Shown: piece after piece, positions 1 through 36,692 of the stretch
Position numbering within the stretch: position 1 is the first letter of the stretch
Layout: each line of letters begins with the position of its first letter
Origin: Candidatus Susulua stagnicola
GTDB lineage: Bacteria; Omnitrophota; Gorgyraeia; Duberdicusellales; 4484-171
Direction: 5' to 3'
Length of the DNA: 37,269 nucleotides
Assembly: GCA_030765735.1 (NCBI GenBank)
Contig: JAVCBZ010000026.1
Location: forward strand, 1-37,269
The notes under the pieces: generated by a model
The model's database searches: none
What the model saw: the letters and a program-made list of their open reading frames with translations, nothing else
Told to the model about the DNA's origin: nothing
Translations under genes and position numbers: made by a program

Positions 1-2065
1 CAACCCGCATTTCTCGCGTGATTGGCTTCATCGCAAAAGAAATATATTCGAGCACATCAAACAAATCACTTTTTTCAGCGTTAATTACTTTTTGTAAAGT
101 TATCAATTCATCTAACCCATACCCCGCATCTGCAAGCTTTCCAAGTAATGCCTTACGTGTATCCGGCTTAGACCAGATTCTACGCAGTTCATCTTCGCTT
201 TTAAAAAATTCCGGTAAAACTCCAAACATGGCCTGCAAAAACTCTTCTGCTGAGATTGGCTTACCATCAGCACTCCAAAATGAAGTAGAAATCATATGCT
301 GGATTTCGCGTTCTTTTCCATCACGTAATTTAATCTTAATCTTTTTCTTGGGAGGCTCGGGCGGTTCTGAAGGTTCAGGCGAATCTTTAGGTGATTTTGT
401 CTCTTTTTCTGTTGTTTCATCTATCGGTTCGCCATCCCATTCGGGATCAAGAAAATGATGATACGCATCTACAAAATCATAAATAGTAAAATACTCTTTT
501 CCGTCAAACAACCGTGTTCCACGCCCAATAATTTGCTTAAACTCAATTATGGAGTTAACTGGACGCATTAGTATAATATTACGAATATTACGAGCGTCTA
601 CACCCGTGGATAGCTTTTGTGAAGTAGTCAAAATAGTTGGAACAGTTTTCTCATTATCTTGAAATTCACGCAAATACTGCTCACCCAATGCGCCATCATT
701 GGCGGTTACACGCACGCAGTAATTCGGTTCTTTGCTTTGTTTATACTGATTAACTAAATCCCGCACTGCTAACGCATGATTCTGAGTAGAACAAAAAACA
801 ATGCCCTTTTCGCTTTGGTCGATTTCAGAAAGAAATATCTGTACTCGTTTGGCTTCACGTTCTTTAATTATTATGACCCTATTAAAATCTGGCTCTGTAT
901 AAATTTTTCCCTGCTCTATCTCGCCTTCAATAATCTGATCATCTGAGGTATAGATATAATCGTCTATTGTAGTTTGAATCCGCTTAACCTTAAACGGCGT
1001 CAAGAAACCATCGTTGATGCCCTCTTTGAGTGAATAGATATGCACCGGCTCGCCGAAATAACGATAAGTGTCCACATTATCTTTGCGTCTAGGCGTTGCA
1101 GTTAAACCAAGCTGAACAGCAGGCGAAAAATACTCCATAATGCCACGCCAATTGCCTTCGTCATTTGCACCCCCGCGATGACATTCGTCAATAATGATAA
1201 AGTCAAAATAGTCGTTCGGATATTGACCAAAATACGGAGCAAGGTTGCCATCCTTATCCTTGCCACTCATAAAGGTTTGAAAGATAGTGAAAAAAATGCT
1301 ACCACTGGTTGGGACTCGACCATTTCTACGAATTTCATGAGGCTTAATTCGAGCCAGAGCATCTTCTGGAAATGCTGAAAAGGCATTAAATGCCTGATCC
1401 GCGAGTATATTTCTGTCTGCTAAAAACAAAATCCGTGGCCTACGAGAGCCATCTCGTCTTAAATCCCAGCGTGTCTGAAAAAGTTTCCAAGCTATCTGAA
1501 AAGCAATAAAGGTTTTACCTGTCCCAGTAGCAAGTGTAAGCAATATACGCTGCTCGTTTTCGGCAATGGCAGCCACTGCATTATTGACAGCGATTTCCTG
1601 ATAATAGCGTACATCCTTTGTGCCACCTATATCTTCAAATGGCACCTGATTAAATTTATCTTGCCATTGATTCTGGGCAGCAAAGGTTTTATTCCAAAGT
1701 TCATCCGGCGATGGGAATGCGGTAATCAATCCTTCCTTGCCAGTTTTCATACAAATTTGATAAATCTCTTTACCGTTACTGGAATAAGTCCTATCAAGAT
1801 GAAGCATTCCGGCATAGTTCTTGGCTTGAGCCACACCTTCCCCTACTTTAAGTTCATCGCTTTTCGCTTCAATGACAGCTAGTTTACACCCCTTATAAAC
1901 CAACACATAGTCAGCAATCAAGGGTTTAGCTCTTCCACCACCGGTCTGGATTTTACCAGCAGTGATTTTATATTCCCGAAGGACTTTTGTATCTTCGACT
2001 ACACCCCAACCGCTTTCCTTCAACTTCGGGTCGATATATTCAGCTCTTGTTTCAGCTTCGTTCAT
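1..2065 (-). CDS. hsdR: Type I restriction enzyme R subunit (EcoAI-like), 3' end runs off window
   Basis: Manual translation from ATG at 2065: MNEAETRAEYIDPKL..., nuclease motif ADYVL...IEAK, Walker A ATGTGKT, DECH box, LTAT, QIIGRGTR; ATGA overlap with hsdS stop; absent from ORF track because no stop in window. Confidence 0.95.
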   Translation of the reverse strand, partial: MNEAETRAEYIDPKLKESGWGVVEDTKVLREYKITAGKIQTGGGRAKPLIADYVLVYKGCKLAVIEAKSDELKVGEGVAQAKNYAGMLHLDRTYSSNGKEIYQICMKTGKEGLITAFPSPDELWNKTFAAQNQWQDKFNQVPFEDIGGTKDVRYYQEIAVNNAVAAIAENEQRILLTLATGTGKTFIAFQIAWKLFQTRWDLRRDGSRRPRILFLADRNILADQAFNAFSAFPEDALARIKPHEIRRNGRVPTSGSIFFTIFQTFMSGKDKDGNLAPYFGQYPNDYFDFIIIDECHRGGANDEGNWRGIMEYFSPAVQLGLTATPRRKDNVDTYRYFGEPVHIYSLKEGINDGFLTPFKVKRIQTTIDDYIYTSDDQIIEGEIEQGKIYTEPDFNRVIIIKEREAKRVQIFLSEIDQSEKGIVFCSTQNHALAVRDLVNQYKQSKEPNYCVRVTANDGALGEQYLREFQDNEKTVPTILTTSQKLSTGVDARNIRNIILMRPVNSIIEFKQIIGRGTRLFDGKEYFTIYDFVDAYHHFLDPEWDGEPIDETTEKETKSPKDSPEPSEPPEPPKKKIKIKLRDGKEREIQHMISTSFWSADGKPISAEEFLQAMFGVLPEFFKSEDELRRIWSKPDTRKALLGKLADAGYGLDELITLQKVINAEKSDLFDVLEYISFAMKPITREMRV

Positions 2066-3222
2066 GATTGTGCTCCTGCAAGTTTACCATTAAAAGCTTT
2101 TTGAAGAATTGATTTCTTTAATTCCTCTAGATCTACCAGTTTTTGCTGGCATATGGCTTCAAGCTTTTTAGTTTCTGCGGAAAGCGTATCAAGTTTGCTA
2201 ACGATAGCTTTTTGCTCAAAGAGAGATTTTGGGAATGGCAAATAGTAACTATAAATAAAATCTTTTGAAATTCGTTTATGGCCAACTGCGCCCGTCATTA
2301 ATTTTTTACCCTCTTCTCTAAATTGATTACGTGTTAAAAAATAGTATAAATAATCAGGAATTATTTCACCTTTTGACCGAAAAACTATGTATTCACTTGA
2401 ACCAAACCCAACGCCATTCGTTAAATTGCGTGCAATTCCAATTTTTCCGTTTTCAAAGCAGGGTGTGATTTTAGCAAGCAGCACATCATCATCTGCAAAA
2501 TATGTATAACTGCTAAAGACATCTTTTAATTGTCTTTCTTTTGTGGCGTTTATTTCTTTGGTCAAGATACCCAAATCTTTCATAGGAAGAAATGTAACAG
2601 ATCCAGCATCTTTTAACTTTTCTTTCGTTTCCTTTTTTGGAGGTTTTATCACGCATACTTCTCCCAGAGTTTTTCCTCCCCATTCATCCCCCAAATTAGC
2701 AAAAACGCTTTGCAGATATGTTTCAAACAGCTCACGGGCATTTTGCAAATTCTTTTCAGTATTTCCTTTTGCCTTAGCAATTTTTTCAAAAAGTTCATCC
2801 AAAATCTTCACTATCCGCTTTTGTTCGGGTAGAAGCGGAAGTGGTATGAGAAGCTCTTGAAAATGTCTAATCCTTAATGATTTAGCTGTTGCTCCAACAG
2901 CAACTTGTTCAAAGTATTTATGATCAAAAATTAAGTAATATTCAACAAATCTTATGCTAACACTTTCATCAAAGTTAAAAAGCGCATAAGCTCTTTGATG
3001 AAGATCAAATTTTCCAGAATAATATCTTGGAAAGAATTCTGCTCCTTCTCCCGGAATTATTAAAGCCTTACAATCAAAAAGAAATCGCCTACTTCTTTTT
3101 ACCTTCTTTGATCGGTCAAAAAAAGCGTACTCACCGTTTTCAACTGCCTCGTTAGCGTTAGATTTACCAGTGCTAATTTTGCAAATACTTCCAAGCGTTT
3201 TTGTTTTCCAATTCTTCCTCAT
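2062..3222 (-). CDS. hsdS: Type I RM specificity subunit
   Basis: Two TRDs each followed by conserved P.P...EQK.IV..LD repeats; between hsdM and hsdR. Confidence 0.95.
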   Translation of the reverse strand: MRKNWKTKTLGSICKISTGKSNANEAVENGEYAFFDRSKKVKRSRRFLFDCKALIIPGEGAEFFPRYYSGKFDLHQRAYALFNFDESVSIRFVEYYLIFDHKYFEQVAVGATAKSLRIRHFQELLIPLPLLPEQKRIVKILDELFEKIAKAKGNTEKNLQNARELFETYLQSVFANLGDEWGGKTLGEVCVIKPPKKETKEKLKDAGSVTFLPMKDLGILTKEINATKERQLKDVFSSYTYFADDDVLLAKITPCFENGKIGIARNLTNGVGFGSSEYIVFRSKGEIIPDYLYYFLTRNQFREEGKKLMTGAVGHKRISKDFIYSYYLPFPKSLFEQKAIVSKLDTLSAETKKLEAICQQKLVDLEELKKSILQKAFNGKLAGAQS

Positions 3223-4673
3223 ACCAAATCTCTAATCGTCTTTAAAATATCAACTGCTTCTTTACCCAGTATTTTCATTTCAGCCAATATTTCTTTTGGT
3301 TTTCGCAGAATAGTTTTGTCTTTTTTATTCGGATTTTTCACAGACAAATCAAATGTACCCTTATCAACATCAGCCACGTTTACTGTCCAAGAGTTTTCGG
3401 ATTCTTCTTTTTTCTTCTGCAATTTTACAAACTCTGCCAGATCATTTTCATTAAGCGGATTAGTCTTGCCGAGATTGCGATTAAGATTAAGTTGATAGTA
3501 CCAAATTTTCTTCGTCTTAACCCCTTTATCAAAGAAAAGCACCACAGTCTTCACACCCGCACCGGTAAAAGTACCACCGGGTAAATCCAGAATGGTGTGC
3601 AGATTACAATTTTCTAAAAGCAGTTTTCGTAAACTGGTCGAAGCGTTGTCCGTATTAGAAAGAAATGTATTTTTAATTACAACGCCTGCTCGCCCGCCAG
3701 CCTTAACGATTTTGATAAAGTGTTGAAGGAAAAGAAATGCAGTCTCACCAGTTTTGATTGGAAAGTTTTGCTGAACTTCTTTACGAATCCCCGCACCAAA
3801 AGGTGGATTGGCTAAGACAATATCGTAACGATCTTTTTCCTGAATATCAGTAATGTTTTCTGATAACGTATTAGTATGCACAATATTGGGTGTTTCTATA
3901 CCATGCAAAATCATATTCATTGTACCAATAATGTAAGCAAGAGATTTGATTTCTTTACCGTAAAAGGTTTTTTTCTGCAAAATTTTGGCTTGTTTAGTTG
4001 TTAAGTTCTTATTGGTTTTAAGATATTCAAAGGCTTCGCATAAAAACCCAGCCGAACCTACTGCTCCATCGTAAATTTTATTTCCAATAGTAGGAGCAAC
4101 CACTTCCACAATGGTTTTAATAAGCGGGCGAGGTGTATAATATTCTCCGCCATTTCTGCCTGCGTTGCCCATATTCTTGATTTTGGCTTCATATAAATGC
4201 GACATTTCATGTTTTTCTTTGTGAGCCCTAAACCGAAGTTCATCAATACGATTAATTACTTCTCGTAGATTATACCCGCTTTGAACTTTATTTTTAAGTT
4301 CACTAAAAATTTCACCTATCTTGTATTCAATCGTATCTGCGCTTTCAGCGCTTGCTTTAAACTTTTTAAAGTAGGGGAATAGCTTATGGTCAGCAAAATC
4401 TTTTAAATCGTCTCCAGTAAGTGCCTTGTGGTGATCAAGTTTGCCATCCTTACCTTTAGGAACGGCCCATGTTTCCCATTGATACTCAGGCTTTATTATG
4501 CCTGTATAAGTTTTACCTGATAATTTTGCCGCTGTTTTCTTATCCTTCTCTAGATCATCTAGATATTTCAAAAAAAGAATCCAAGAAGTTTGCTCTACAT
4601 AATCCAGCTCGCTAGAACATCCTGCGTCTTTATGGAGAATATCGTCAATATTTTTAAAAGTTTGTTCAAACAT
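3219..4673 (-). CDS. hsdM: Type I RM N6-adenine methyltransferase (ATG at 4673 preferred; GTG at 4679 alternative)
   Basis: GEYYTPR, motif I YDGAVGSAGF, motif IV NPPF; ATGA overlap with hsdS. Confidence 0.95.
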   Translation of the reverse strand: MFEQTFKNIDDILHKDAGCSSELDYVEQTSWILFLKYLDDLEKDKKTAAKLSGKTYTGIIKPEYQWETWAVPKGKDGKLDHHKALTGDDLKDFADHKLFPYFKKFKASAESADTIEYKIGEIFSELKNKVQSGYNLREVINRIDELRFRAHKEKHEMSHLYEAKIKNMGNAGRNGGEYYTPRPLIKTIVEVVAPTIGNKIYDGAVGSAGFLCEAFEYLKTNKNLTTKQAKILQKKTFYGKEIKSLAYIIGTMNMILHGIETPNIVHTNTLSENITDIQEKDRYDIVLANPPFGAGIRKEVQQNFPIKTGETAFLFLQHFIKIVKAGGRAGVVIKNTFLSNTDNASTSLRKLLLENCNLHTILDLPGGTFTGAGVKTVVLFFDKGVKTKKIWYYQLNLNRNLGKTNPLNENDLAEFVKLQKKKEESENSWTVNVADVDKGTFDLSVKNPNKKDKTILRKPKEILAEMKILGKEAVDILKTIRDLV

Positions 4674-5583
4674 TGGCACTTCTCTTGATAGTAAAGGGTT
4701 TCTTTAATTGAGAGCTTATTATATTATGGCTGTGAAGGTTTAATTTTTTAGAAAAAATCATGATTTCTTTACCTATTTTTGATTGATATGCACTGTGCTG
4801 GATTGTAAATTTTCTTTTGCGCATTTTTGTGTAAAGCTTGCGTATATACGAAACGTCATCATACGTCATAATCCATTTTAACGATGAATCCTGCAAAAAT
4901 TTCCTTAGTTTTTCATGGTCGCTATCTTCGTAGTGGTTAAGATAGAGAAGTTTACCTTTTTGATAATAAGGCGGATCAAGAAAAATAAAATAATTGCTCA
5001 TGTTTTTACATCGTTCTATCTTTTTTAAAAGGCTAATTCCGTCAAGATTATAGACTTTGATTTTATTCTTATATCTCTTAATTCGCTTCAAGCGCTTAAC
5101 AAGCGTGCTTTTAGTAAAACGGACGTCAAGCTTCCAGTCTCCGGATTGATCCATTCCCCCAATTGGACCCCCTTCAATGATCCCCGATCTATTTGTTCTA
5201 TTTAGAAAAAGTGTTGCAAACGCCAATTCATGATCAGAGGACAATGCCCTATTATATATCTCTTTCTGTCTTTTCCATTCCTCGATAGTAATCTTCACTT
5301 CTAGTACTCTTTTTATTAAATATTCACTATCAGAAAGAGCGGTTTTCCAAAAGGCATAAATGGCAGAATCAAAATCATTGATTATAATTCTGTTAACTTG
5401 TCCTGCAAATAATAAGGACAGCGCTGCCCCTGCTCCTCCTGCATATGGTTCAACGAGAATTACTTTACCCTTGTCTTCTTCTGTGAAATTTTTTTCAATT
5501 GTCTTAGCAAAAAACTTTGCAAGACGAGTCTTTCCTCCTGGATACCTAATAGGACTAACAAATTTTAGTTTTGCTTTTTCCAT
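4666..5583 (-). CDS. D12-class (Dam-family) DNA adenine methyltransferase
   Basis: SPIRYPGGK, EPYAGGAG, IIIND, LFLNRTNRSG, DPPYY motifs. Confidence 0.9.
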   Translation of the reverse strand: MEKAKLKFVSPIRYPGGKTRLAKFFAKTIEKNFTEEDKGKVILVEPYAGGAGAALSLLFAGQVNRIIINDFDSAIYAFWKTALSDSEYLIKRVLEVKITIEEWKRQKEIYNRALSSDHELAFATLFLNRTNRSGIIEGGPIGGMDQSGDWKLDVRFTKSTLVKRLKRIKRYKNKIKVYNLDGISLLKKIERCKNMSNYFIFLDPPYYQKGKLLYLNHYEDSDHEKLRKFLQDSSLKWIMTYDDVSYIRKLYTKMRKRKFTIQHSAYQSKIGKEIMIFSKKLNLHSHNIISSQLKKPFTIKRSANV

Positions 5584-5584
5584 T

Positions 5585-6991
5585 CTACGTTTCTTTCTTT
5601 TCAGGAACTGACGATAAAATAAACATAAATAACGGCTTTAACTCATCCCACCCTTGTTGCACAGCCTCTCTATTGCTGAAAAAATAATGGCTATGATTTA
5701 ATTGGTGCATAAAATTAGCAGTATACCCCATCATGCTTACACTACCTTTTGTTTGTTCGATTTTCGTTATAAGATTTTTTAGCGCTTTAAATTTCGAACC
5801 AGCAAGAAGCTTAACTTTTTCATTCCCCTTAAATTCTTCTAAAGCATCCTTTAAAAAGGAGTATTCTCCTTTTTTCTTTATTGCTATCTCATGTAAATCA
5901 AAGAAGGCTTTGAGTGAGCATTCTAAAAAACTCCTTAATAAATCATGCGCAGCATTTGGGAAACCCCTATCATTACTGATGGATATTCTTTCTATCTCTT
6001 TGTACATGCGTTCTATTGCGGGAAATGGAAGGTAAAAATTAATACCCTGAGTATTCAGCTTATTCTTGGTGATTTTAGTTGGTTTAACCGGTACAAAATC
6101 ACTCGCCATAGCTGTTGTTTTGAAGGACAATTTTTTGGGAACAATTTGGTCAATGTACGTTTTTCTCTCTGTACTATCACTAATTTTTTTCCGAGATGTA
6201 ATTATTTTGTCCACAATGTCAGTAATGATAATTGTATAGGCGCGATCAAATTCTTGTGATTTGGGAATTGTTACCTCTCCCGTTTCAGGGTTAAACTGAA
6301 GTCCCATTTTTTCTTGTACATATTTATCTGAATACAATCTTTCCAGGGTTGTAATATCAAAATTTCGCTTATTGTTTATTTTTTTACGCACTTCATCGGA
6401 AAGCTTCGGTAAGGATGTTGCAATCTGATGCATTTCATACATCCTAATATATGCAGGAATATTAACTCCTTTATATCTTTTAATTAAATTTTGAACAGAT
6501 CTACCTTTTTCTTTTTGGGCATAATAAAAATAGGCTCTTCTTAATGCACTCCATGGACGTTTGGTATTTTTTGTATGTTTTGCGGCTAAATACTGCATTG
6601 CCGCTTCTCTGTTGGGTGCAACTCTAACCGTTATGCTAAGAATAGGGCTTCTTTCAAGCATTAATTTTCTAATTTTTTCTTTGTATTTTCGAGGAACATG
6701 AATTGGGTCTATCATTGCTTGCAAAGAGGCCACTCTTCGACTTCCTTCAAAAACAACCCAATTTTTGTTTTCTCTAACAACTACAGGGCTTTCGTCGGGG
6801 AAAAACCCATTTTCATAAATACTGAGAAGAATTTGCATAGCCTTTTCATTAACAAATAAATCTCTAACGATTTCATCTTGCGTTTTGCGTTCCGTCTCTA
6901 GTCGAATATTCTCTGGATCAAGCAAAAGAGAAGCAACCAAGACAGTAATTGGTTTCCATTCTTGCTGATAATTTATAAGTTTCTTTTTCAT
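5585..6991 (-). CDS. ParB/Srx-like N-terminal domain protein with putative HEPN-like C-terminal domain; candidate defence effector
   Basis: LLLDPENIRL...YENGF...PVVV...VVFEGSRRVASL (ParB-like GxRR); C-terminal FPNAAHDLLRSFLE...MHQLNHSH helical region resembling HEPN. Confidence 0.6.
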   Translation of the reverse strand: MKKKLINYQQEWKPITVLVASLLLDPENIRLETERKTQDEIVRDLFVNEKAMQILLSIYENGFFPDESPVVVRENKNWVVFEGSRRVASLQAMIDPIHVPRKYKEKIRKLMLERSPILSITVRVAPNREAAMQYLAAKHTKNTKRPWSALRRAYFYYAQKEKGRSVQNLIKRYKGVNIPAYIRMYEMHQIATSLPKLSDEVRKKINNKRNFDITTLERLYSDKYVQEKMGLQFNPETGEVTIPKSQEFDRAYTIIITDIVDKIITSRKKISDSTERKTYIDQIVPKKLSFKTTAMASDFVPVKPTKITKNKLNTQGINFYLPFPAIERMYKEIERISISNDRGFPNAAHDLLRSFLECSLKAFFDLHEIAIKKKGEYSFLKDALEEFKGNEKVKLLAGSKFKALKNLITKIEQTKGSVSMMGYTANFMHQLNHSHYFFSNREAVQQGWDELKPLFMFILSSVPEKKET

Positions 6992-7050
6992 GATGCTCCT
7001 TTTATTTTACTTTTATTTACCCAAAAGTTCTTATTGTATTTCTCTATCTT

Positions 7051-7245
7051 TTATCTCCCCACTAATTCATCTATCTTAATTTTAAAAGCATTTGCAAGTT
7101 TTGTTAATGTCTCTAGGGTTGGGTTTTTGTTTGACCCCGATTCTATCTTGATAAGAGTGCTGTAGGTAATTCCGGCTTTTTGGGCGAGTTGTTCTTGAGA
7201 CAAATGGTGTTTCTTCCTAAGTTTTTTAATATTTGCGGCGAGCAT
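7051..7245 (-). CDS. XRE-family HTH transcriptional regulator (C-protein-like)
   Basis: IKKLRKKHHLSQEQLAQKAGITYSTLIKIESG..NPTLETL; AGGAG RBS. Confidence 0.9.
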   Translation of the reverse strand: MLAANIKKLRKKHHLSQEQLAQKAGITYSTLIKIESGSNKNPTLETLTKLANAFKIKIDELVGR

Positions 7246-7259
7246 AAAATCTCCTATTT

Positions 7260-8186
7260 CTATTTTATCTTTTCCATAATGCTTAAAATCCCTTTATCAA
7301 GTTGTGAGAAAGCAAACCATTTTTTACCAAGATCTTTTAATGATGCACCAATGTGATATACGACCTGCTTATCAATAATTAAAAACCTATCATGGGATTT
7401 ATTAAATATTTTAATTTCAATCGAATGATATTGCGCGTTATGTTTTTTTAAATCAAGGTGTAATTGTTTCGAAATTTGTTTGGTGAAAATAGTAGCAGAA
7501 ACGCCTTTTTTACGTTTATCAAGTAATGTTAAAACAGATTCATCAATATAATTATCAATCAATATAATAGATTTTTTTGCTTTTTTAATAATCTTTGAAA
7601 CAAAAAGATACGCTTCAAACACTTGTCCGTCAAAAAATATCCCCTGTTTAGGCTGAATATTTTCTTTTTCTAAGGCTTTAAAAACTTTCTCAAATTTTTT
7701 ATTTGTCTCTAGTTTATGCTCTAATTGTTTTTGCTCAACGTTATCAAGCCGTTGAAAAAGAACAGCGTTTGTTTGAATAAAACGACGCATTTGTACAAAA
7801 GCATTCATAATTTGGATACTAATCCTAATCGCTGTGTCACTTTTTAACACAGCAGATAGCATAGCTACCCCTTGTTCAGTAAAAACATAGGGCAAGTATT
7901 TTCGGTGTTTTCCTCTCTCATCTTTTAAGGTCGCAAAATGCGACCTTAAAGAATCATTAGATGCCTCAATTTGTGACATCCATTGATTAAGCTCTTGCTT
8001 TGTTAATTGAAACATAAATTCTTTTGGAAAACGATCAATGTTCCGCTTAACCTGTTCATTAAGTCTTTTTATTTCTACTCTATATAATCCAGCTAAGTCT
8101 CTATCAAACATAATCTGCCGTTTGCGAATTGTATGGATTTTTGATCTAATTTGTTTTTCGGTGGAATTTACTAACTCTTTTTTCAA
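7260..8186 (-). CDS. ORF6N-domain DNA-binding protein with C-terminal PLD-like domain
   Basis: IMFDRDLAGLY...LNEQVKRNIDRFPKEFMFQL...LPYVFTEQGVAMLS (ORF6N); C-terminal IIDNYID...SHDRFLIID...YHIGASLKDLG; TTG start with AGGAG RBS. Confidence 0.85.
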   Translation of the reverse strand: MKKELVNSTEKQIRSKIHTIRKRQIMFDRDLAGLYRVEIKRLNEQVKRNIDRFPKEFMFQLTKQELNQWMSQIEASNDSLRSHFATLKDERGKHRKYLPYVFTEQGVAMLSAVLKSDTAIRISIQIMNAFVQMRRFIQTNAVLFQRLDNVEQKQLEHKLETNKKFEKVFKALEKENIQPKQGIFFDGQVFEAYLFVSKIIKKAKKSIILIDNYIDESVLTLLDKRKKGVSATIFTKQISKQLHLDLKKHNAQYHSIEIKIFNKSHDRFLIIDKQVVYHIGASLKDLGKKWFAFSQLDKGILSIMEKIK

Positions 8187-8212
8187 CTTAAAACTCCTAT
8201 TTTTTTACTTGA

Positions 8213-8249
8213 CCCTTCGATGCGCTCATTGCATTCGCTTACTCAGGAC
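8213..8249. repeat. REP-like element CCCTTCGA...CTCAGGAC
   Basis: CCCTTCGATGCGCTCATTGCATTCGCTTACTCAGGAC; shares CCCTTCGA end with the element at 37037. Confidence 0.45.
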
Positions 8250-8274
8250 CTGCGGAAAATCTTTTAGATTTCCC

Positions 8275-8303
8275 TTGACAAACTATCAATATATTGCTAA
8301 TAT
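8275..8303 (+). promoter_or_regulatory. Sigma70-type promoter for small ORF/recombinase
   Basis: TTGACA-17 nt-TAATAT with extended -10 TG; repeated ACTATCA/TTATCA motifs nearby may be operators. Confidence 0.55.
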
Positions 8304-8387
8304 TGTATTAATAGATTACTATCAGTTTATTGCTCTTAATTTAATGATATTTTATCTCGTCTTTAGAAATTATCAAGTATTTTAAAT

Positions 8388-8561
8388 ATGGCTATTAAAC
8401 AGCTAACTAAACATACTAAATCACCTGCTCAGCCAATAAATTTTAATTGGCCTGACAATCCTGCTGTCAAAAATCTGCTGGATGTGATCTCCTCTATTCT
8501 CGCTGAAGAATATGTAGAGATAGCCAAAAAGAACCATGATGTATTCTCAAATGAAAAATAA
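8388..8561 (+). CDS. 57-aa hypothetical protein upstream of recombinase (candidate directionality factor)
   Basis: Manual translation MAIKQLTKHTKSPAQPINFNWPDNPAVKNLLDVISSILAEEYVEIAKKNHDVFSNEK; amphipathic helix; downstream of promoter; too short for the ORF track. Confidence 0.6.
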   Translation: MAIKQLTKHTKSPAQPINFNWPDNPAVKNLLDVISSILAEEYVEIAKKNHDVFSNEK

Positions 8562-8684
8562 TATTAACCCGGATGTATCCCTCCTCGCTGTATATAGGGT
8601 AAAATGTCTTCGACTTTTTACCCTAACTCGGAGGGATTTAATTCGGACTACAGGTTTTTCTCTGAAAAACCTAAGTCTCATTAA

Positions 8685-10397
8685 ATGAAAGTTGCCATAT
8701 ACGCTCGCTATTCTTCTGAAAACCAAAGCGCCAAAAGCATTGACGACCAAATACGCGTATGCAAAGACTATGCCGGAAAAAATAACTTTCTTGTAGAAGA
8801 CGAACACGTCTATGTTGATAAGGCAATTTCAGGGTCTATTGTTGACCGGCCCGGATTGCAGGCTTTGGAAAAGGCTGCCGAGAATAAAGAATTTGATACT
8901 GTGATTGTAGATGACTTATCCCGGATATCACGAAGCAACCATCAAATGTTGACTTTAGTTCTTAAATTCAACTACCTGCAAATTAGAATTATCTCTGTAT
9001 CAGACGGTATCTCTACAGATGATGACAATTCTAAATTAGGCATTCATCTGCGCGGGCTTATGAATGAACTTTATCTTGATGACCTTAAAAAGAAAACCAT
9101 GCGTGGATTAGAAGGCCAGAAAATCCGCGGTTTTAGTGTAGGCGAAAATGTATTTGGCTATTTTACCGAACCGGTCGGCGAGCTAAGGATTGGCAAAAGG
9201 GGTGAAGCAAAGCATGACGGGATGATCCATAAAATAAATCCTGAGCAAGCCGATATAGTAAAAAGGATATTTAATGAGTTCTCCGGAGGTAAAAGCTTAA
9301 GAAAACTTGCCGCATCGCTTAATGAGGACAAAATCCCTACTAAACGCGGGCTTTCCGGTGGTTGGAATATTTCCAGTTTACGCAGAATCTTACAAAATAA
9401 AAAATATATTGGTATCTGGATATGGAAAACAACCAAAACCGTCCGAGATCCTCTGACCGGGAAAAAGAAAATTGTTTCGCGTCCCGAAAAGGAGCATTTA
9501 TCCACACGCAGAAAAGATTTAATAATTATTGAGCAGGATATTTGGGATAAAACCAGGGAAAGGTGGTCTAAAATGGTAGGCGCCTATCCTCTATCTAAAA
9601 AGGCAAGAGCAAACGGCCAAAAACAAAAAAGTTATGTTCATTGTGCCCCAACTCATCTTTTTTCGGGAACAATGAAATGCCACTGTTGTAACGGGCCAAT
9701 TGTTCTTGTCAGCGGAAAAGGCGACGGTTACTATGGTTGTTATAATTTTCGCCGTAAAACCTGTACTAATAAATTATTAGTATCCCGTAAGCGTGTAGAA
9801 AAAACCATCCTCACTGCGCTACAAGAAAAGGTTTTGACTCTTAATAATATAAACTACATTTATAAGAATCTGGAAACCCAAATAGCAAAAAGATTAAACA
9901 ATAACCCTGAGGCCATAAAGAAGAAAAGAGCCCAGCATGATAAGCTTTCTTTAGAAATGCAGAATTACTTGAATTACATTAAGTTAGGTAACTTTTCAAA
10001 GGCCGTATCCGAAGCATTAAAGCACTGTGAATCGAGGTTTGAGCTGTTAACAGAAGAAATAAAATCCCTGGAATTCCAGAAGAGCAACACCTTTAAATCC
10101 CCTCCCCTAGAGTGGGTGAAACACCGTCTAGAACGTTTACAGGAAACACTTAGCAAGAAGGCCACCTCAGCAGCCCTTGTCTTAAAAGGGCTCCTATCCC
10201 CCATATCCCTTGAGCCTGTATTAAGCCCTGATAATGACTTCTATTCAGTAGTTAATGCTCAGGAAGGAAGGTTTAAACCCTATTACGTGGCCCATATAAA
10301 AGCACAAACCCTTGCTCTTCTCGATGAGAAGAACAAGGGTTCGAATTGGTTTCAGTGGCGGGGTCGATGGGATTCGAACCCACGATCACCTGCGTGA
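8685..10397 (+). CDS. Large serine recombinase (integrase)
   Basis: YARYSS catalytic Ser, DDLSRISR, recombinase domain, zinc ribbon CHCC...YYGC...C, coiled coil. Confidence 0.95.
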   Translation: MKVAIYARYSSENQSAKSIDDQIRVCKDYAGKNNFLVEDEHVYVDKAISGSIVDRPGLQALEKAAENKEFDTVIVDDLSRISRSNHQMLTLVLKFNYLQIRIISVSDGISTDDDNSKLGIHLRGLMNELYLDDLKKKTMRGLEGQKIRGFSVGENVFGYFTEPVGELRIGKRGEAKHDGMIHKINPEQADIVKRIFNEFSGGKSLRKLAASLNEDKIPTKRGLSGGWNISSLRRILQNKKYIGIWIWKTTKTVRDPLTGKKKIVSRPEKEHLSTRRKDLIIIEQDIWDKTRERWSKMVGAYPLSKKARANGQKQKSYVHCAPTHLFSGTMKCHCCNGPIVLVSGKGDGYYGCYNFRRKTCTNKLLVSRKRVEKTILTALQEKVLTLNNINYIYKNLETQIAKRLNNNPEAIKKKRAQHDKLSLEMQNYLNYIKLGNFSKAVSEALKHCESRFELLTEEIKSLEFQKSNTFKSPPLEWVKHRLERLQETLSKKATSAALVLKGLLSPISLEPVLSPDNDFYSVVNAQEGRFKPYYVAHIKAQTLALLDEKNKGSNWFQWRGRWDSNPRSPA

Positions 10398-10434
10398 CAG
10401 GCAGGGGACTTAAGCCAGACTAATCGACGACCCC
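10356..10434 (-). tRNA. tRNA-Asp(GTC), CCA encoded
   Basis: Cloverleaf: acceptor GGGGTCG/CGACCCC, anticodon arm CCTGC-CTGTCAC-GCAGG, T loop TTCGAAT, ends GCCA. Confidence 0.95.
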
Positions 10435-10446
10435 GATAGATTTAAG

Positions 10447-19736: not shown

Positions 19737-22366
<2,630 letters not shown>

Positions 22367-24808: not shown

Positions 24809-24863
24809 GAAACAATTCATGATTTGCTGGCTGCAGATATAAATTAGTTATTTAGAAAGTTTA

Positions 24864-24899
24864 TTGACCCCATTAGAGAACTTTCTCTAATGGGGTTGA
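24864..24899. repeat. Miniature palindromic element with TTGA direct-repeat flanks (may also act as gyrA terminator)
   Basis: TTGA CCCCATTAGAGAA CT TTCTCTAATGGGG TTGA. Confidence 0.75.
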
Positions 24900-24935
24900 C
24901 AAATTAACTTTATAACTTAAAATAGAAACACTTTC

Positions 24936-27355: not shown

Positions 27356-28126
27356 ATGTTATACATAGTTGCGACTCCAATTGGAAATTTAGAAGACATA
27401 ACTTTAAGAGCTATTCGTGTTTTAGCAGAAGTGGATCTTGTTTTAGCTGAAGATACTCGTAAAACTGGAATGCTTTTAAAGAGGCTAAATATAAACCCCG
27501 TTAAAAGTGCCGAGCTTAAAGAAAAAAAAGGTAATACTTCTAACGGGGTGAAAAAAGAATTATTTAGTTTTTATGAGCACAACGAGACAAGAAAAATGCC
27601 TTTGGTCCTTGAAGAGCTGAGGAAAGGAAGAGACGTTGCGATGGTTTCAAGCGCAGGCACACCAACCATATCAGATCCAGGGTATAAGTTAATAAAAGCT
27701 TGTAGGGAAGAAGGCATCCCAGTTACTTCTTTGCCTGGCCCAAGTAGTATTATTAATTGTTTAGCTTTGTCTTCAATATCTCACGATAAGTTTGTTTTTT
27801 TAGGATACATGCCACGAAAAAAAAGTGCTCAGAAAAAGTTGTTAGAAGAAACAAAAGAATGGGGCATTAATTTAGTGTTTTTTGAATCTCCCTATAGAAT
27901 AATAAAATCATTAAAGTTGATAAAAGAGATTTTAGGAGAAACTAGGGTGGTTATTGGCAGAGAAATGACTAAAAAGTTTGAAGAGGTCCTAGAAGTTGGG
28001 GTAAGTGAAGCTATAGAGCACTTTAGCAGAAAAGCGCCTAAGGGTGAGTTTGTCTTGGTTATAGACAATAGAAAAGCTAAAGAAGCAAGAAAAGCTAAAG
28101 AAGCAAGAAAAGCATTAAAAGATTAA
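27356..28126 (+). CDS. rsmI: 16S rRNA C1402 2'-O-methyltransferase
   Basis: LYIVATPIGNLEDIT, AEDTR, AGTPTISDPG, FESPYR, REMTKKFEE. Confidence 0.95.
   Translation: MLYIVATPIGNLEDITLRAIRVLAEVDLVLAEDTRKTGMLLKRLNINPVKSAELKEKKGNTSNGVKKELFSFYEHNETRKMPLVLEELRKGRDVAMVSSAGTPTISDPGYKLIKACREEGIPVTSLPGPSSIINCLALSSISHDKFVFLGYMPRKKSAQKKLLEETKEWGINLVFFESPYRIIKSLKLIKEILGETRVVIGREMTKKFEEVLEVGVSEAIEHFSRKAPKGEFVLVIDNRKAKEARKAKEARKALKD
27492..27552. repeat. Palindromic element inserted in frame in rsmI
   Basis: TAAA CCCCGTTAAAAGT...ACTTCTAACGGGG TGAA; encodes extra NPVKSAELKEKKGNTSNGV. Confidence 0.8.
28070..28113 (+). repeat. 18-bp tandem repeat (2.4 copies) in rsmI 3' end
   Basis: AGAAAAGCTAAAGAAGCA x2 + AGAAAAGC = RKAKEA RKAKEA RKA. 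Confidence 0.9.
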
Positions 28127-35941: not shown

Positions 35942-36298
35942 ATGTGGTATACGTATATAGCTTTAGGATTAGGGGCAGGAATTGCTAGCGGGTTCTTGGG
36001 TATTGGCGGAGGGTCAATACTAATTCCAGTAATGGTATATATGTTTGGGCTTACTCAACATCAAGCTCAAGGCACAACTTTAGCTTTAATGATTCCACCG
36101 ATAGGCTTGTTAGCTGCTTGGAAGTATTACTCTGAAGGCAACGTTAAATTAAACATGGCGACCTTTATCTGTATTGGATTTTTATTTGGAGCATTAATCG
36201 GGGCAATTTTTGTTCACAAAGTACCAGCTCCTATATTAAAGAAGGTCTTTGGGATATTTCTATTTTTAATATCTTTAAAAATGATTTTAGGAAAATGA
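35942..36298 (+). CDS. TauE/SafE (TSUP) family permease, single-repeat
   Basis: AGIASGFLGIGGGSILIP, QHQAQGTTL. Confidence 0.85.
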   Translation: MWYTYIALGLGAGIASGFLGIGGGSILIPVMVYMFGLTQHQAQGTTLALMIPPIGLLAAWKYYSEGNVKLNMATFICIGFLFGALIGAIFVHKVPAPILKKVFGIFLFLISLKMILGK

Positions 36299-36335: not shown

Positions 36336-36692
36336 CTAAAAATAGATTCCCAAATGTATAAGCAGAGAGTTTTCAATTTCTTTTAGTTTTTTAAGCGAAG
36401 CTTTCCCCAAAGGTTTTATCAGCCGTTTCTTATCTATAGTTCTTATCTGGTTGCATTTTACTTTAGAATTTTTAGGGAGTCCTGATTCTTGAGAGGGTAG
36501 AAGTGTTTCGAAAGGGTAAATCTTTTCTGTATTAGAAGTGATAGGAAGAACAGTTACGGTTTGCGCAACTTGATTGTTTATGTCATTGGAAATTATTAAA
36601 GCGGGACGAGTTTTATTAATTTCGGAGCCAATCGTTGGATCTAAACATACAAGATAAATTTCGCCCCTTTCCGGATGTTTTTTTAATCCCAT
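36336..36692 (-). CDS. mazF: MazF/PemK-family toxin
   Basis: RGEIYLVCLDPTIGSEINKTRPALIISND, CNQIRTIDKKRL. Confidence 0.93.
   Translation of the reverse strand: MGLKKHPERGEIYLVCLDPTIGSEINKTRPALIISNDINNQVAQTVTVLPITSNTEKIYPFETLLPSQESGLPKNSKVKCNQIRTIDKKRLIKPLGKASLKKLKEIENSLLIHLGIYF

Follow-up and report, generated by a model that had tools for sequence, protein, structure and literature searches.

The 37,269-nt contig of Candidatus Susulua stagnicola analysed here (the window) carries in rsmI, the gene of the 16S rRNA C1402 2'-O-methyltransferase, a 53-bp palindrome that lengthens the protein by 19 residues. Very probably, this segment is a copy of a non-autonomous DNA transposon resembling transposable elements of the miniature inverted-repeat type (MITEs), presumably moved in trans and surviving in genes when it lies in frame. 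Copies with the same ends are found elsewhere and make up a large family of palindromic mobile elements that lie in frame and lengthen essential proteins of many uncultured phyla, a family that is apparently undescribed and in several respects unlike its known counterparts.

The palindrome in rsmI and a second copy

The host gene of the insertion (27356..28126, + strand) is an open reading frame (ORF) of 256 aa matched by the Pfam family TP_methylase (5.2e-32), with the E. coli RsmI structure 5hw4 as its best solved relative (phmmer, E 1.5e-52). The palindromic element occupies 27496..27548 and has 13-nt arms with one mismatch. Its right terminal inverted repeat (TIR), ACTTCTAACGGGG (27536..27548), equals the family consensus, and the left one, CCCCGTTAAAAGT (27496..27508), departs from it at position 9 by a single G-to-A change, by which the usual Arg codon becomes Lys. 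The flanking 4-mers, TAAA (27492..27495) and TGAA (27549..27552), are the left and right target-site duplications and differ by one transition, which is synonymous inside the Val codon GTG. As 53 + 4 nt make 57 nt, that is 19 codons (27494..27550, + strand), the rsmI frame is kept, and the protein reads RLNI, then the added peptide NPVKSAELKEKKGNTSNGV (residues 47-65), then KKELFSFYEHNE. An earlier reading of the bare sequence (the original prediction) had described this palindrome with its one-mismatch arms, its flanks, and its in-frame length, and all of this is confirmed on the DNA and the ORF.

That the extra peptide is an insertion had also been proposed. In an alignment of the window protein with 19 homologues, the 19 residues are present only in P0001, which is 100% identical, and the other 18 lack them, including P0002 (84% identity) and P0003 (81%). 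Among the best 120 RsmI matches, 8 are longer than 230 aa and all 8 were aligned, the other 112 having 217-228 aa. When phmmer aligns the protein with E. coli RsmI, the match is interrupted at the same place (query 47 to 64 versus chain 49 to 47). Judged from these sequences, the 19-residue segment of RsmI is an insertion, absent from close and distant RsmI proteins alike. An AlphaFold model of the protein, built from 81 sequences, has a mean pLDDT (predicted local distance difference test) of 84.7 and a template modelling score of 0.85 (target-length normalised) against 5hw4_C. The model places the insert between helix 34-43 and strand 65-71, and its pLDDT falls below 50 at residues 55-63, within the insert, which suggests a flexible stretch. 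At the C-terminus of the same protein, the window has two tandem units of 18 nt coding for KAKEAR (28073-28108), and P0001, otherwise identical, has a single unit and ends in ...KAKEARKGLKD; as far as these two sequences tell, the unit count is a strain-level repeat polymorphism.

A single match to the two-end pattern lies in the window, versus 0 of 100 dinucleotide shuffles. The rsmI segment folds at -19.6 kcal/mol as RNA (z -4.53; none of 200 shuffles equals it) and at -10.3 kcal/mol as DNA (z -3.74). It is also detected on the two strands (E 2.2e-06 and 3.9e-05) by R1, a covariance model made from 43 copies, with seeds from other genomes. Neither the pattern nor a search of the peptide by regular expression finds further copies with exactly the same ends in the window. 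This single occurrence would suit a one-off insertion into rsmI by slippage or local duplication, the palindrome being accidental, an explanation that has next to no probability left: it is refuted by the copies sharing these ends elsewhere, at least 120 in number, and by a second, variant copy in the window itself.

This second copy is a minimal one, a 28-bp perfect palindrome (24868..24895) formed by CCCCATTAGAGAA and TTCTCTAATGGGG with 2 nt between them, and lies in the intergenic DNA with gyrA on one side and tRNA-Glu on the other. It is bordered by perfect duplications TTGA (24864..24867 and 24896..24899), the right one being followed by a C that matches the target consensus described below. 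R1 detects it at E 6.9e-04 and 8.4e-04, and four weaker matches of the window have E 1.9-9.9. Its arms carry a compensated G-to-A / C-to-T change, and their variants ..GAGA.. and ..AATGGGG are also found in other genomes. The surrounding DNA (24846-24917) is itself partly palindromic, with 35-nt arms that are 77% complementary, so the DNA downstream of gyrA may already have held a hairpin, or an earlier copy, when the 28-bp copy inserted there.

A family with near-invariant ends, 4-bp duplications and a coding bias

The wider distribution of the ends was followed by scanning 185,579 species-representative genomes (596 Gb) with a loosened two-arm pattern of 20 fixed bases, two free positions per arm, and an interior of 16-46 nt (31 gap lengths). 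The pattern matched at least 120 loci versus about 17 expected by chance (arithmetic, uniform base composition), a lower bound that is no measure of distribution or copy numbers; all fractions of 120 or 121 given in this text are among the matches listed. The consensus arms are CCCCGTTAGAAG[T/C] and [A/G]CTTCTAACGGGG, with positions 1-12 near-invariant in the 121 listed matches. The free positions of the pattern are GA (positions 9-10) in 119/121 and TC in 118/121 and, because they are nearly fixed, the matches are not due to chance. Position 13 of the arms pairs T-A in 87/121 and C-G in 24/121, and arm variants are complementary (..GAAA/TTTC.., ..GAGA/TCTC.., ..GAGG/CCTC..). The element measures 28-70 bp, some copies reaching about 146 bp, and R1 reveals 13 more non-seed copies in 229,382 nt of flanking DNA. 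Thus, the predicted MITE-like family with further copies, conserved ends, and variable loops is borne out, the arms being near-invariant and the interiors different. A match in Cytobacillus, one of the 6 counted as others below, looks like a chance palindrome, as its free bases differ and the flanking repeat is missing.

Perfect 4-nt direct repeats flank 70/120 copies, and 21 more have one mismatch, versus 1/120 in each of two offset controls, so that the flanking 4-mers behave like target-site duplications. The duplicated 4-mers vary (TAAA, TTGA, TTTA, TCAA, TGAA, CTTG, and others) within a target of the form (G)YNNR(C), of which the central 4 bp are duplicated. Indeed, over the 120 copies, position -4 is T in 88 and C in 28, position -1 is A in 89 and G in 30, position +1 is T in 93 and C in 25, and position +4 is A in 85 and G in 28; outside them, position -5 is G in 57 and position +5 is C in 47, for a background of 0.22 each for G and C. 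The two central bases are free, and only one of 71 perfect duplications has a palindromic centre. A rule by which the bases before and after the element would pair was also considered (A:T 78, G:C 14, G:T 15), yet A:C occurs in 11 of 120 and YNNR fits better.

Nested copies, each with its own 4-nt duplication, are found at three loci (L016 1454-1600, L021 92-257, and L075 1458-1590), the inner copy of L075 having inserted into an interior hairpin at its CTTG loop, and a tandem pair in L020 (1432-1553) has one TAAA common to both copies. Taken together, the inverted repeats, the 4-bp duplications at a symmetric target, the nesting, and the presence or absence of copies among orthologues point to insertion through staggered cuts of 4 bp, whether by cut-and-paste or by copy-and-paste, and to survival in genes where the frame is preserved. 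A paired motif bound by a host protein or serving for uptake, like inverted DNA-uptake sequences, and enriched by selection, would also leave a 12-13-nt word that is kept from genome to genome and that coding DNA can accommodate. It is most improbable here, since the arms nearly always stand in inverted pairs bordered by direct repeats of 4 nt, an arm on its own being rare in the listed loci, since nested copies have their own duplications, and since the same word occurs in unrelated phyla. Two related copies of 66 nt, a length of 0 mod 3, were observed in L031 and L052, which belong to one Pseudomonadota-labelled metagenome-assembled genome (MAG). The L052 copy lies in an EamA transporter ORF between CTCA and TGAG, an inverted and not a direct pair; it is the sole internal copy of non-standard length among the listed copies and may have arisen differently.

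The family shows a marked bias of length. Among 120 copies, the length modulo 3 is 2 in 83, 1 in 19, and 0 in 18 (binomial p 1.6e-15). The arms are stop-free in two of the three frames on either strand, the third frame reading TAG, so a copy of length 2 mod 3 adds whole codons (length + 4). They read P-V-R-S or T-P-L-E inward and S-N-G-V or L-L-T-G outward. At least 150 nt are open on both sides in one frame for 43/83 copies of length 2 mod 3, versus 1/37 for other lengths. Within ORFs, 32 listed copies read PVRS...TSNGV and 11 read TPLE...LLTG, in agreement with the NPV[RK]...SNG[VI] peptides of housekeeping proteins, and with the alternative TPL...LTG frame, that had been anticipated from the rsmI copy. 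The open arm-compatible frames of copies with an in-frame length number 3.23 of 4 versus 2.65 +/- 0.10 for shuffled interiors, a stop-codon depletion that carries little weight because many copies are preconditioned on one open host frame.

Copies are found in both orientations relative to the host gene, and also between genes. Spanning ORFs of at least 360 nt number 66, of which 49 have Pfam families. These hosts include SecA, DNA polymerase III alpha (DnaE), CarB, Pol I (PolA), NAD-ligase (LigA), Mfd, UvrB, SerRS, CysRS, SMC, ScpA, FolD, Tgt, a pseudouridine synthase, FtsQ, and pilins or pseudopilins. The last form a hot spot, because G-TTTA-C, the consensus of the target, spells out the codons for G-F-T: 7/120 seeds lie exactly at the G/FT junction of the prepilin leader (L015, L029 with two, L034, L035, L063, and L081), and L020 (1003-1587) has two successive inserts of this type. 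Each prepilin copy rebuilds ...LLTG/FT[LM][IV]E... behind the insert with a lengthened leader, so the mature pilin should be unchanged.

The hosts were counted from 80 record titles, in which MAG labels may be imprecise and mis-binned contigs are possible: 33 are Patescibacteria (candidate phyla radiation, CPR), 18 Planctomycetota, 8 Omnitrophota, 7 unclassified 'bacterium', 3 Nitrospirota-type, 3 Pseudomonadota, 2 Elusimicrobia, and 6 others. The same insertion is found in orthologous LigA genes of two loci titled Omnitrophota (L047) and Planctomycetia (L055). A blastn comparison of a typical copy with plasmid and phage collections finds no copy: the matches are short, ascribed to chance, and almost all confined to the GC-rich interior, the left arm being touched by one phage match (E 7), and all of them fall short of 80% query coverage.

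Folded interiors and the proposed mobilising enzyme

The interiors vary widely and are unrelated between subfamilies, the hairpins being kept; the largest group has two hairpins within the 13-bp outer stem. In 43 copies chosen by similarity to one reference copy, and for a structure derived from these same sequences with an outer stem mostly set by the search pattern, 90.5% of the pairing cells are paired versus 80.6 +/- 0.7 after shuffling, 116 cells are changed on both sides versus 39.6 +/- 4.9, neither figure is attained in any of 500 shuffles, and slid controls pair at 33.5-49.5%. The mean fold energy of the 121 matches is -34.2 kcal/mol. The interiors have a mean G+C of 0.57 versus 0.44 in the flanks, without correlation between the two (r 0.09), so they do not merely adopt the composition of the host. 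The covariation of the hairpins, which a repeat-binding enzyme alone does not explain, may be due to folded DNA being recognised, to slippage from one 4-nt repeat to the other that removes the element precisely, or to some role in the mRNA.

A functional RNA, either cis-regulatory or an intervening sequence that excises itself from the mRNA, with transposition as a secondary feature, would explain covariation in three helices and such stable folds. The periodicity of the length and the near-absence of other lengths in ORFs (43/83 versus 1/37) indicate instead that ribosomes read through the element. Moreover, copies lie in both orientations and in two frames relative to the host gene, as well as between genes, and no Rfam family is found at the gathering score in the window and 20 loci, only a chance hairpin of miRNA type appearing at E<=1. 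This explanation is therefore very unlikely.

Somewhat less improbable, and still unlikely, are folded single strands moved by a HUH/Y1 enzyme that recognises hairpins, like REP/REPIN sequences with RAYTs or IS200/IS605-derived elements. Such a mechanism agrees with the conserved three-way-junction fold, in which compensatory changes affect both interior hairpins and arm position 13, with the low mean fold energy, and with the lack of a DDE transposase near the copies. HUH/Y1 systems insert beside a fixed short target and, to our knowledge, make no duplication. The perfect and variable 4-nt direct repeats of 70/120 copies and the symmetric YNNR target are contrary to this behaviour, both ends are fully symmetric, many copies are intragenic, and there is no gene like Y1 or RAYT among 187 ORFs scanned.

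A transposon with staggered 4-bp cuts remains the preferred reading, in which the element would be served by a trans-acting transposase, most likely of the DDE/DDD type. Several observations weigh against it, besides the bounds already set on the number of loci and on the record titles. No transposase or long element bounded by the same ends is found among the 187 flank ORFs (66 spanning and 121 neighbouring). A perfect duplication is missing from 49/120 copies. The covariation of the interior hairpins is not needed by a DDE enzyme that binds the TIRs. Translation of the insert is deduced from frame statistics. As for the rsmI copy, its interior resembles none of the 119 other listed copies, and its fold (-16.8 kcal/mol) is weaker than those of all 121 others (-20.4 to -51.5). 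The only long-range arm pair of the listed loci, in L020 (930 and 3033), was rejected as a long element, since each arm belongs to a short copy and pilin-like or small genes lie between.

The 121 neighbouring ORFs include one IS481-type transposase (L049) and one protein with only a helix-turn-helix domain (L045), and nothing recurrent; one tyrosine recombinase among the 187 is itself the host gene of a copy. L013, a contig of 1.66 kb in which a 345-aa ORF is flanked by copies, was considered as an autonomous element and rejected, as its ORF shows no sign of being a transposase: a hydrophobic segment lies at the N-terminus, and neither Pfam nor NCBIfam gives a match.

The atypical AT-rich and host-like interior of the rsmI copy, its weak fold, and its two point changes mark it as an old, decaying copy. 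According to the preferred transposon scenario, one copy would have entered rsmI at an ATA/AAA AAA site after the split from the relatives whose RsmI is 81-84% identical. It would later have gained the left-arm transition (R to K), the synonymous transition in the duplication, and the AT-rich interior. Copies within genes would persist when they land in a tolerant surface loop, and the interior hairpins would be retained by a requirement for the nucleic acid to fold, be it in order to be recognised or to allow the element to be lost precisely when the 4-nt repeats slip.

A bolder and only tentative proposal is that these are cross-phylum 'coding transposons' whose ends are readable in four frames and whose interiors are selected as a three-way junction. 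They would be moved by an unrecognised enzyme or a shared host function and pass between the ultra-small, host-dependent Patescibacteria or Omnitrophota and neighbours such as Planctomycetota. If this is true, the family would keep supplying essential proteins with new loops and would also mark where phyla have exchanged DNA.

Relation to known elements and other features of the window

Rickettsia palindromic elements (RPEs), to which the rsmI copy had been compared from the outset, are likewise multi-copy palindromes lying in frame in unrelated housekeeping genes and adding a peptide to them. They are described as about 150 bp long and known from Rickettsia, with 44 insertions in R. conorii, a frequency called unusually high, and as the extreme case of in-frame MITEs (a 2024 review, PMC10969869). 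The present family has, in contrast, 28-70 bp, 13-bp near-invariant ends, 4-bp duplications, and hosts in several phyla by record titles, so that it is set apart from RPEs by size and host range rather than by a sequence comparison. Thus, the likeness is taken as an analogy of in-frame peptide insertion and not as family membership.

Bacterial MITEs such as Correia, ERIC, and QMITE share with this family TIRs, a target-site duplication, small size, a non-coding nature, and many copies. Indeed, the copies described here have 13-nt TIRs and a duplication of fixed length, are small and without a transposase gene, and are numerous. MITEs usually share their interior with a parent insertion sequence in one lineage, whereas here the interiors differ and no parent was found among the flanking ORFs. 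MITEs are also described as mainly intergenic (PMC11602168), whereas more than a third of the listed seeds of the present family are inside ORFs.

A lead on the enzyme comes from piggyBac and IS1380, with which the 4-bp duplication with outer bases T...A and the C-run ends are shared, a resemblance of ends only. The piggyBac elements duplicate TTAA, rarely TAAA and TCAA, and have repeats starting with CCC, IS1380 transposases being their prokaryotic outgroup (PMC10813416). In the present family, by contrast, the two central bases of the duplication are free and palindromic centres nearly absent, and no such transposase occurs in the flanks.

REP and REPIN sequences with RAYTs are also short, GC-rich, able to form hairpins, and present in high copy number; we know of no report of duplications for REPs. 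The listed seeds differ from them in that 43/120 are internal to ORFs, in having duplications, and in missing the GTAG/CGTC tag. IS200/IS605-derived elements have asymmetric ends, subterminal hairpins, and a one-sided fixed target without duplication; here, the arms are symmetric and the duplicated 4-mers variable. In integron attC sites, RYYYAAC at the 5' end pairs with GTTRRRY at the 3' end. The arms GTTAGAA...TTCTAAC have the reversed order, each one position off the consensus, and an attC site was rejected. The double-hairpin elements of chytrid mitochondria are small hairpin DNA in coding genes. They resemble the present copies in lying inside protein-coding sequence and being translated, and differ in being organellar, in other hosts, with no shared sequence known. 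REPs are extragenic by definition and bear the GTAG/CGTC tag (PMC3733652), and coding palindromes are reported for the mitochondria of Nematomorpha (PMC6649704).

Literature searches by terminus strings returned only papers unrelated by title, and searches by concept, outside whose coverage subscription journals lie, brought up nothing that describes such a family. None of the terms sought occurs in the main text of PMC11602168, the MITE survey, in whose supplements such elements may be listed. The family is apparently undescribed so far. In-frame selfish DNA in housekeeping genes is mostly treated as a Rickettsia oddity. If the family is as widespread as these matches suggest, nature has potentially made hundreds of insertion experiments (in SecA, DnaE, PolA, LigA, tRNA synthetases, and pilin leaders) showing where essential proteins tolerate 15-25 extra residues, and a clear search target is set, the enzyme to which a 13-bp end shared by several phyla is recognisable. 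Those who annotate MAGs should be aware of the family, as it results in lineage-specific 'insertions' and in repeats that break assemblies.

The window itself is a replication-origin region, AT-rich (34% G+C), with Pfam matches for dnaA, dnaN, gyrB, gyrA, glmS, rsmI, pyrR, pyrB, and pyrC, and the best matches of its proteins are labelled Candidatus Omnitrophota. A 57-nt inverted repeat in gyrB (21854-21910, 16-nt arms, in frame) was considered as a second coding palindrome and is not an insertion, because most of the 120 listed GyrB homologues, the closest included, also have 783 aa. Seven Omnitrophota GyrB homologues (P0163, P0169, P0182, P0209, P0213, P0217, and P0220) reach 940-1220 aa and include the intein-type domain PF14890, which is missing from the window GyrB.

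The first part of the window (1-10440) adjoins a tRNA cluster (Asp, Val, Leu, Cys) and is a probable integrated island. It codes for type I restriction-modification (hsdR, hsdS, and hsdM), a D12-class adenine methylase, a large serine recombinase, a protein with an ORF6N domain, and a product of 468 aa that Pfam does not match. An inverted repeat of 16 nt (10307-10341) abuts tRNA-Asp. Near the other end of the window, a 118-aa TauE/SafE-type ORF and an opposite-strand ORF of a MazF/PemK-type toxin are adjacent (35942-36298 and 36336-36692). The 118-aa ORF aligns only to positions 129-237 of the 237 of the TauE/SafE profile and, since this is its C-terminal half alone, may be a truncated gene.

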